The position numbers were made by a program, and so were the translations under genes. Of a stretch of DNA of 40,625 nt, positions 21,379 to 22,553 are shown piece after piece (positions within the stretch are counted from its first letter, which is position 1; each line of letters starts with the position of its first letter). This DNA comes from Escherichia phage Pipis: the sequence record PV714130; one strand, 5' to 3'. The notes beneath the pieces are model-generated. The model made no database searches. It was given only the letters and a program-made list of their open reading frames with translations, and was not told the origin of the DNA.

Positions 21379-22422
21379 ATGGCAAACGTTCCGGGTCAGA
21401 AAGTAGGTACAGACCAAGGTAAAGGCAAAGCTGGTTCCGACGCTCTGGCGTTGTTCCTGAAGGTCTTTGCTGGCGAAGTCCTGACCGCATTCACTCGCCG
21501 CTCTGTAACTGCTGACAAGCATATTGTCCGCACCATTCAGAACGGTAAGTCCGCTCAGTTCCCGGTCATGGGTCGCACCTCTGGTGTGTATCTGGCTCCT
21601 GGTGAGCGACTGTCAGATAAGCGTAAAGGTATCAAACATACCGAGAAAGTGATCACCATTGATGGTCTGCTGACTGCCGATGTGATGATTTTCGACATTG
21701 AAGACGCTATGAACCACTATGACGTGGCTGGCGAGTATTCCAACCAGTTGGGTGAAGCTCTGGCTATCGCTGCCGATGGTGCTGTTCTGGCTGAAATGGC
21801 CATCCTGTGTAACCTCCCGGCTGCATCCAACGAGAACATTGCTGGTCTAGGCACTGCGTCCGTACTGGGAGTTGGTAAGAAAGCTGACCTCAACACCCCG
21901 GCTAAACTGGGTGAAGCAATCATCGGTCAATTGACCATTGCTCGTGCGAAGCTGACCTCTAACTACGTTCCTGCTGGCGACCGTTACTTCTACACCACGC
22001 CTGACAACTACTCTGCAATCCTCGCGGCTCTGATGCCGAACGCTGCTAACTATGCTGCGCTGATTGACCCAGAGACTGGTAACATCCGTAACGTGATGGG
22101 CTTCGTGGTTGTTGAAGTTCCACACTTGACTCAGGGTGGTGCTGGTGAAACTCGTGGTGCTGATGGTATCACTATTGCGACTGGTCAGAAGCACGCCTTC
22201 CCAGCTACTGCTACTGGTGATGTTAAGGTTGCTCTGGACAACGTTGTGGGTCTGTTCTCTCACCGTTCTGCGGTGGGTACCGTTAAACTGCGTGACTTGG
22301 CGCTGGAACGTGACCGTGACGTCGATGCTCAGGGCGACCTGATTGTTGGTAAGTACGCTATGGGTCACGGTGGTCTGCGTCCTGAAGCAGCTGGCGCACT
22401 GGTTTTCAGCCCAGCGGCGTAA
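21379..22422 (+). CDS. 10A: major capsid protein 10A
   Basis: 347 aa; long identical stretches with recalled T7 gp10A (LALFLKVF, GKSAQFPV, IKHTEKVITIDGLLTADV, DIEDAMNHYDV, ILAALMPNAANYAALIDPE, HRSAVGTVKLRDLALER, KYAMGHGGLRPEAAGA). Confidence 0.97.
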   Translation: MANVPGQKVGTDQGKGKAGSDALALFLKVFAGEVLTAFTRRSVTADKHIVRTIQNGKSAQFPVMGRTSGVYLAPGERLSDKRKGIKHTEKVITIDGLLTADVMIFDIEDAMNHYDVAGEYSNQLGEALAIAADGAVLAEMAILCNLPAASNENIAGLGTASVLGVGKKADLNTPAKLGEAIIGQLTIARAKLTSNYVPAGDRYFYTTPDNYSAILAALMPNAANYAALIDPETGNIRNVMGFVVVEVPHLTQGGAGETRGADGITIATGQKHAFPATATGDVKVALDNVVGLFSHRSAVGTVKLRDLALERDRDVDAQGDLIVGKYAMGHGGLRPEAAGALVFSPAA

Positions 22423-22553
22423 GCACCTTTAGCCAACCTAACGTCGCTACAGTAGCGGCTGCACCTGAAGAGGAGACTCTAACTCCTCAACAGAAAGCTG
22501 CGCGTACTCGTGCTGCGAACAGGGCCGCTAAACTGGCTGAGTCCAACAACTAA
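21379..22553 (+). CDS. 10B: minor capsid protein 10B (predicted -1 frameshift product)
   Basis: Heptamer G GTT TTC at 22401-22407, 13 nt before the 10A stop, matches the T7 gene 10 slip site; the -1 frame is open for 48 codons (QPSGVSTFSQPNVATVAAAPEEETLTPQQKAARTRAANRAAKLAESNN) to a TAA at 22551-22553. Confidence 0.5.

Follow-up and report, generated by a model that had tools for sequence, protein, structure and literature searches.

[quoted passage not shown] A programmed -1 frameshift at gene 10A/10B of phage T7 was reportedly described by Condron, Atkins and Gesteland in 1991. The T7 frameshift site has been defined as G_GU U_UUC (PMC5009743), with 10B arising from approximately 10% of translations (PMC1635266). 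Work on related phages includes K1F, where a -1 frameshift adds 44 triplets to form g10b and where virions carrying GFP at the 3' end of g10b were fluorescent and stable (PMC6277420), as well as Kvp1, where 10B was proven by mass spectrometry and the slip occurs at TTTTCA (PMC2579914). Here, we utilize the 40,625-nucleotide Pipis sequence (PV714130), hereafter called the window, together with a set of related loci, to examine this question. Our analysis indicates that the window phage very probably does have a functional T7-type -1 frameshift that yields 10B. We consider this frameshift to be real but ordinary, as the mechanism is textbook for T7, where it has been established by experiment, and is already documented in the genus Kayfunavirus; the window adds one more instance with an identical signal.

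Gene 10 and its slippery heptamer

Judged from its sequence, the window represents a new Kayfunavirus genome (K1F-like, T7 family, Studiervirinae), with the nearest records sharing approximately 95.7% identity across 94% of its first 25 kb. Gene 10A occupies positions 21379-22422 of the plus strand, ends with a TAA stop codon at 22420-22422 and codes for a protein of 347 amino acids. The open reading frame list, the translation and searches of Pfam and the PDB all identify this protein as a major capsid protein of the T7 gp10A family, with a match to Pfam PF21703 (Gp10A-like, E 3.6e-105) and PDB matches to T7 10A (2xvr/3j7v, E 9e-147) and to 9vvq (E 3e-216). Identity with T7 10A is 72%, and neither 10A nor the predicted 10B has an exact match in the protein collection.

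Upstream of gene 10A there is a phi10-like phage-RNA-polymerase promoter core, CACTATAGGGAGA, at 21264-21276 of the plus strand. The window contains no other perfect match, and the corresponding position upstream of gene 10 in T7 is occupied by phi10. Four further promoter-like sites with two mismatches are present on the plus strand against a chance expectation of 0.72, giving five phage-RNAP promoter-like cores of the form CACTATAGG(G/A)A... at 17035, 20265, 21264, 25672 and 39650 (+). The occurrence of the perfect CACTATAGGGAGA match only ahead of gene 10 fits with gene 10 having the strongest late promoter.

The heptamer GGTTTTC occurs once on the plus strand of the window, at 22401-22407, where it is phased G GTT TTC with position 22402 being codon position 1 of the 10A frame. 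The codons across the heptamer are Leu-Val-Phe, and the zero-frame end of 10A reads GCA CTG GTT TTC AGC CCA GCG GCG TAA. Spacing between the heptamer and the stop codon is 12 nt, such that the 10A stop starts 13 nt after the last base of the heptamer and the zero frame terminates four codons past it. The position, offset and phasing that the initial annotation gave for this signal match the sequence at each coordinate. Val342 and Phe343 are the last zero-frame codons in the predicted 10B. After the slip, the -1 frame reads CAG CCC AGC GGC GTA AGC… and continues for 48 sense codons (22407-22550) before a TAA at 22551-22553, so the 10B-specific feature spans 22407-22553 (+) and its product is QPSGVSTFSQPNVATVAAAPEEETLTPQQKAARTRAANRAAKLAESNN. 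The predicted 10B is a protein of 391 amino acids consisting of residues 1-343 of 10A followed by QPSGV…AESNN. Both the 48-codon open -1 frame that crosses the 10A stop and the Tphi-like terminator previously placed right after the -1 stop can be read directly from the sequence, with the terminator hairpin starting 2 nt after the TAA.

The region in which ribosomes could enter the -1 frame is narrow. A TGA at 22383-22385 closes this frame upstream and it is open only from 22386; therefore, ribosomes have only 11 codons in which to enter it, and no slippery sequence other than GGTTTTC is present in this entry region. Past the 10A stop, the +1 frame of the window has three open codons as compared to 44 in the -1 frame. 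In the window sequence alone, the probability of at least 44 open codons is approximately 0.11 and in-frame NNN-WWW-N heptamers make up 1.2% of codons. We estimate the joint chance of the pattern at approximately 1%, and its significance in a single sequence is only modest; the comparative data that are described below raise the pattern far above chance. One part of the initial annotation has to be replaced, namely the peptide suggested for detection of 10B by mass spectrometry (TFSQ…QQK), which is not tryptic as no K or R precedes it. The tryptic peptide that spans the junction is a 48-mer, YAMGHGGLRPEAAGALVFQPSGVSTFSQPNVATVAAAPEEETLTPQQK.

Known systems and related loci

The resemblance to the T7 10A/10B arrangement that was initially proposed holds in several respects. 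The capsid proteins of the window and of T7 (NC_001604) belong to the same family, the identical heptamer lies at the homologous Val-Phe codons (…GAVVF) 9-12 nt before the 10A stop, the extensions are homologous with a common core of EETLTPxQxAARTRAAN, and the 10B stop is located just upstream of a Tphi terminator that has the same ACCCCUUGGG/CUUGAGGGGU base. The T7 record also annotates a joined -1 coding sequence. There are, however, a number of differences. The T7 extension is 56 amino acids long and ends with …EETLTPAQEAARTRAANKARKEAELAAATAEQ, while that of the window has 48; the linker is QPSGVSTFSQPNVATVAAAPE in the window and QSGVMLGVASTVAASPEEASVTST in T7; and the tail of 10A is SPAA in the window and KVE in T7. 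Furthermore, the terminator is more than 200 nt from the site in T7 versus approximately 150 nt in the window, and the window has no counterpart of the G-run found after the T7 site.

Closer counterparts are found in two phages of the same genus as the window, both of which have the same heptamer at the homologous codons and add 44 triplets past the 10A stop. The extension of K1F, the Kayfunavirus type species (Moller-Olsen et al. 2018, PMC6277420), differs from that of the window by one residue, and the K1F RefSeq record annotates 10A only. The extension of Penshu1 (MK903281) is identical to that of the window and is annotated as a joined coding sequence, QEG09807, described as "minor capsid protein … -1 frameshift". 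Phages T3 and phiYeO3-12 likewise have a -1 shift close to the 3' end of their homologous capsid gene that gives a C-terminally extended minor capsid protein, but their heptamer is C CCA AAG and the slip occurs on Lys AAA_G three codons downstream, with a joined -1 coding sequence annotated in the T3 record. Loci of the T3 type carry a Big_2 Ig-like extension of approximately 85-93 amino acids that is unrelated to the linker and helix of the window. Near the end of 10A the window has no T3-type C CCA AAG (x xxA AAG) heptamer, and its extension has no Pfam domain. The site also shares with canonical X XXY YYZ frameshift signals, such as those of E. coli dnaX, IS911 and retroviral gag-pol, a tandem or A-site slip and two products in a fixed ratio. 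It differs from these in that its X XX is G GU and not three identical bases, and in that it lacks both significant structure 5-9 nt downstream and an upstream Shine-Dalgarno-like element.

For a broader comparison, 80 IMG/VR loci coding for 10A relatives at 71-98% identity were scored for their Val-Phe codons, frame openness and terminator position; together with the window and reference loci this set comprises 82 non-redundant loci that fall into three groups of 58, 15 and 9. The first group has GTTTTY (58/82), which is always accompanied by a -1 extension ORF. In each of the 57 GTTTTY loci with a detectable terminator, the terminator is at least 124 nt past the 10A stop, and the -1 ORF fills this gap, ending approximately 2-17 nt from the terminator wherever both were read. 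For example, 44 codons go with a terminator at +135, 88 codons with one at +267, 93 codons with one at +286-289 and 471 codons with one at +1424. Loci of the second group (15/82) have the Val-Phe codons as GTC/GTA TTC and lack a real extension, with the terminator located 6-13 nt past the 10A stop in all five in which it is detectable. The third group (9/82) has the T3-type x xxA AAG heptamer. Association of the heptamer with the gap gives a Fisher p of 1.5e-7 for loci that are not phylogenetically independent. Across the loci, the +1 frame past the 10A stop mostly has 2-33 open codons. Three loci (L026, L027 and L079) have a heptamer that begins with C or A, and all three retain the extension.

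Relatives with GTC/GTA TTC that have the same …GALVF… are L029-L033, L035, L038, L039, L041, L045, L049, L051, L054, L055 and L058. We take the loci of this second group to be natural 10B-less lineages that provide a clean negative control. The comparative set constitutes a clean natural experiment, as a single synonymous difference in a Val codon, GTT versus GTC, coincides exactly with whether a locus has an extension. This set could additionally serve as a benchmark for frameshift predictors.

The same heptamer is followed by different tails in different loci. The 44-codon T7/K1F-type tail is present in the window, L006-L008, L024, L025 and L037, and an unrelated domain of approximately 88 amino acids (…TDWSLL…YSRRTNSLYFKA…VGYDGSPVRSFNVSFTN), which has no Pfam match, is present in L011 and L014-L023, whose 10A is 93-96% identical to that of the window. 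The 10B extension is a swappable module carried by near-identical capsid genes. In two further loci (L040:1267-2690 and L052:983-2400; IMG/VR 3300034349_000001 and 3300034127_000003) the heptamer of a gene 10 homologue is G GTT TTT and is followed by a 471-codon -1 ORF that ends approximately 10 nt ahead of the terminator. A Big_2 Ig-like domain is encoded at the N-terminal end of this ORF (E 4.7e-11). The non-Ig remainder of the L040 extension, approximately 390 amino acids, has no Pfam match; inspection by eye of this remainder in L040 and L052 reveals GDSL/SGNH-like motifs (FEGDSLT…, DGTHSN), and these loci may display an enzyme on the capsid through frameshifting. Two loci have altered extensions. 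In L009, a close relative (2542-2545; IMG/VR 2974615076, 39300 bp), the GTAAGC at the 10A stop has lost one base. The extension is intact in other respects but no longer lies in the -1 frame, which is open for 11 codons past the stop as compared to 43 for the +1 frame; either the sequence contains an error here or full-length 10B has been lost recently. In L012 (2551-2810), the -1 extension starts as the 88-aa domain type and runs into a small hydrophobic ORF (…EWFFLLKVRMIMFYLLTALGLFVSFWAIILLTGPCSPYDR) with no detectable terminator at this locus, which looks like a deletion that took out the terminator together with the last part of the domain.

RNA structure around the slip site

The Tphi-like intrinsic/phage-RNAP terminator of the window is located at 22556-22601 on the plus strand and has a 17-bp hairpin with a base of ACCCCUUGGG…CUUGAGGGGU and a U8 tail. 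The hairpin itself (22556-22593) has a UUCG loop and a dG of -25.2 kcal/mol (z -4.8) and is followed by T8. Across 11 diverse loci its helix exhibits compensatory changes in four pairs, with 100% of the cells paired, and its ACCCC…GGGGU base, which includes a CCCC element, is conserved. Frameshifting in T7 has an unexplained long-range requirement that includes the CCCC of its terminator (PMC5009743). Further downstream, at 22613-22702 (+) and ahead of gene 11, there is an ORF for a 29-aa hydrophobic peptide, MVLIYTWLVLFVLFWAYLLPSSPSSPYDC, that has a strong Shine-Dalgarno sequence, AAGGAGG, approximately 5 nt upstream. L012 has a similar peptide, and a hypothetical protein is annotated at the corresponding position of Penshu1; the product is probably a small membrane protein.

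The sequence near the heptamer has none of the usual local features of a stimulator. No significant structure was detected in the 63 nt downstream of the heptamer, where the minimum free energy is -14.3 versus a mean of -16.0 for shuffled sequences; the resulting z of +0.56 rules out a local downstream hairpin as the stimulator. The corresponding T7 region is likewise without significant structure (z -0.52), and an RNAalifold consensus shows no conserved local helix near the heptamer. By inspection, no Shine-Dalgarno-like GGAG/AGGA is present within 25 nt upstream of the heptamer. Given the lack of both a hairpin 5-9 nt downstream and a Shine-Dalgarno-like motif, the efficiency of frameshifting is therefore unpredictable. 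A search of Rfam returned no family match, only sub-threshold chance matches that were driven by the terminator hairpin. Pairing of a GGGG near the site with the CCCC of the terminator was also considered and rejected, as both the window and the T7-like locus L057 lack a G-run and T7 has one 18-30 nt downstream.

The RNAalifold analysis does predict one long-range helix that involves the slip site. In this helix, GCAC-UGGUUUUC (22396-22407) is paired with GAAAGCUG…CGUGC (approximately 22484-22505), with the 3' arm corresponding to the conserved Q-K-A-A…R-A codons approximately 80-100 nt downstream of the slip site. Its 12 pairs are formed in 93-98% of the cells across the 11 diverse loci with only one double change and hardly any compensatory change, both arms are constrained by their coding function, and the minimum free energy fold of the window pairs the slip site elsewhere. 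It would be surprising if the slip site were held in a conserved long-range helix that, together with the terminator, forms the distal element modulating frameshifting in T7-like gene 10, and we treat this pairing as an unexplained hint rather than a finding.

Coding constraint, alternatives and annotation

Analysis of the extension as a protein was based on 20 distinct window/T7-type sequences of 40-56 amino acids, among which all length differences are whole codons. These sequences were collected by locus-based extraction; a tblastn search of phage records with the 48-aa extension gave no match, with the low-complexity filter probably masking this Ala-rich peptide. Mean pairwise diversity at the three codon positions of the -1 frame is 0.23/0.25/0.53, with the third position being twice as diverse as the first two. 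Across 77 pairs, Nei-Gojobori dN/dS has a median of 0.25, with a value of 0.09 for the LTPQQKAARTRAANxAxK core, a block that is full of stops in either of the other frames. The -1 frame is therefore protein-coding, and the extension is subject to purifying selection at the protein level. An alignment with T7 and 18 other distinct sequences shows a common LTPxQKAA(R/I)TRAxNKA, and several phages share an identical extension despite nucleotide differences between their 10A genes. Domain and structure searches gave no coverage of the extension in Pfam or the PDB. A single-sequence AlphaFold2 prediction leaves residues 1-26 unstructured and forms one helix from residues 27-47 (block-mean pLDDT 85-92) that coincides with the conserved core, such that the extension is predicted to consist of a linker of approximately 26 residues followed by a basic alpha-helix.

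The observed selection bears directly on the possibility that the site is an inherited relic, with the heptamer and the open -1 frame kept by descent from a T7-like ancestor, frameshifting being negligible and the extension functionless. The absence of a detectable local stimulator is compatible with a relic, as is the L009 deletion, which breaks the frame without further decay. Several related lineages also lack both the heptamer and the extension, and 10B is therefore dispensable in the family. However, a relic does not account for the dN/dS of 0.25 and of 0.09 in the core, for the perfect association of the heptamer with the ORF across loci, or for the identical extension in phages with nucleotide-divergent 10A genes, and the K1F g10b::gfp fusion is expressed and carried on virions (PMC6277420). 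We consequently regard this alternative as highly unlikely.

A second alternative places the slip in transcription, with the phage RNA polymerase slipping on the run of four T to generate one-base-deleted mRNAs that encode 10B. This would give a -1 product that is indistinguishable at the protein level, and there is indeed a T run inside the heptamer, but four T are far shorter than the homopolymers known for slippage, which are typically 8-9 or more. The T7 case has moreover been treated as ribosomal frameshifting (PMC5009743), and transcriptional slippage appears extremely unlikely to be the source of 10B.

Least probable is a separate small gene, in which the ORF at 22386-22553 is translated alone as a peptide of approximately 50 amino acids and not as part of a 10A fusion. 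Conservation of this ORF and the selection acting on it speak for such a gene, but it contains no ATG, GTG or TTG, has no start-codon ORF listed in its frame, and no ribosome binding site is present; independent initiation is excluded because there is no start codon. The start of the ORF furthermore always overlaps the end of 10A at the heptamer, Kvp1 10B is a fusion by mass spectrometry (PMC2579914), and the T7 and T3 records annotate joined coding sequences, leaving next to no probability for this alternative. Readthrough of the zero-frame TAA was rejected, as a further zero-frame stop follows 10 codons later and it is the -1 frame that encodes the homologous sequence.

We favor -1 ribosomal frameshifting at G GUU UUC. 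Most ribosomes would stay in the zero frame at G GUU UUC and terminate four codons on to give the 347-aa 10A, while a minority would slip one base back on GUU UUC and translate 48 more codons to give the 391-aa 10B. The main driver of the slip is expected to be re-pairing of tRNA-Phe from UUC to UUU. As the three loci whose heptamer starts with C or A keep the extension, the P-site tRNA and its re-pairing seem to matter less than this UUC-to-UUU slip. A lesser role of the P site agrees with the TTTTCA of Kvp1 (PMC2579914) and with a review in which G_GU is treated as falling between the hexanucleotide and heptanucleotide types of site (PMC5009743). The resulting 10B would co-assemble into the capsid as a minor component, with its extension, a flexible linker and one conserved basic helix, predicted to be exposed on the capsid surface. 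For Pipis, we infer the production of 10B, its rate and its incorporation into virions. The 10B of T7 is dispensable, and therefore the functional importance of 10B is uncertain. From an engineering perspective, the C-terminus of 10B is the natural place to display fusions on therapeutic phages of the K1F-like type.

These results also have a practical bearing on annotation, with some records labelling a coding sequence of 10A length as 10B. Among the best 40 matches listed, a joined 10B coding sequence is annotated only in Penshu1. Record OM867676.1 (L002:730-1773) has a 10A-length coding sequence (347 aa) that is labelled "minor capsid protein 10B", and the 347-aa chain of PDB entry 9vvq is named "Minor capsid protein".
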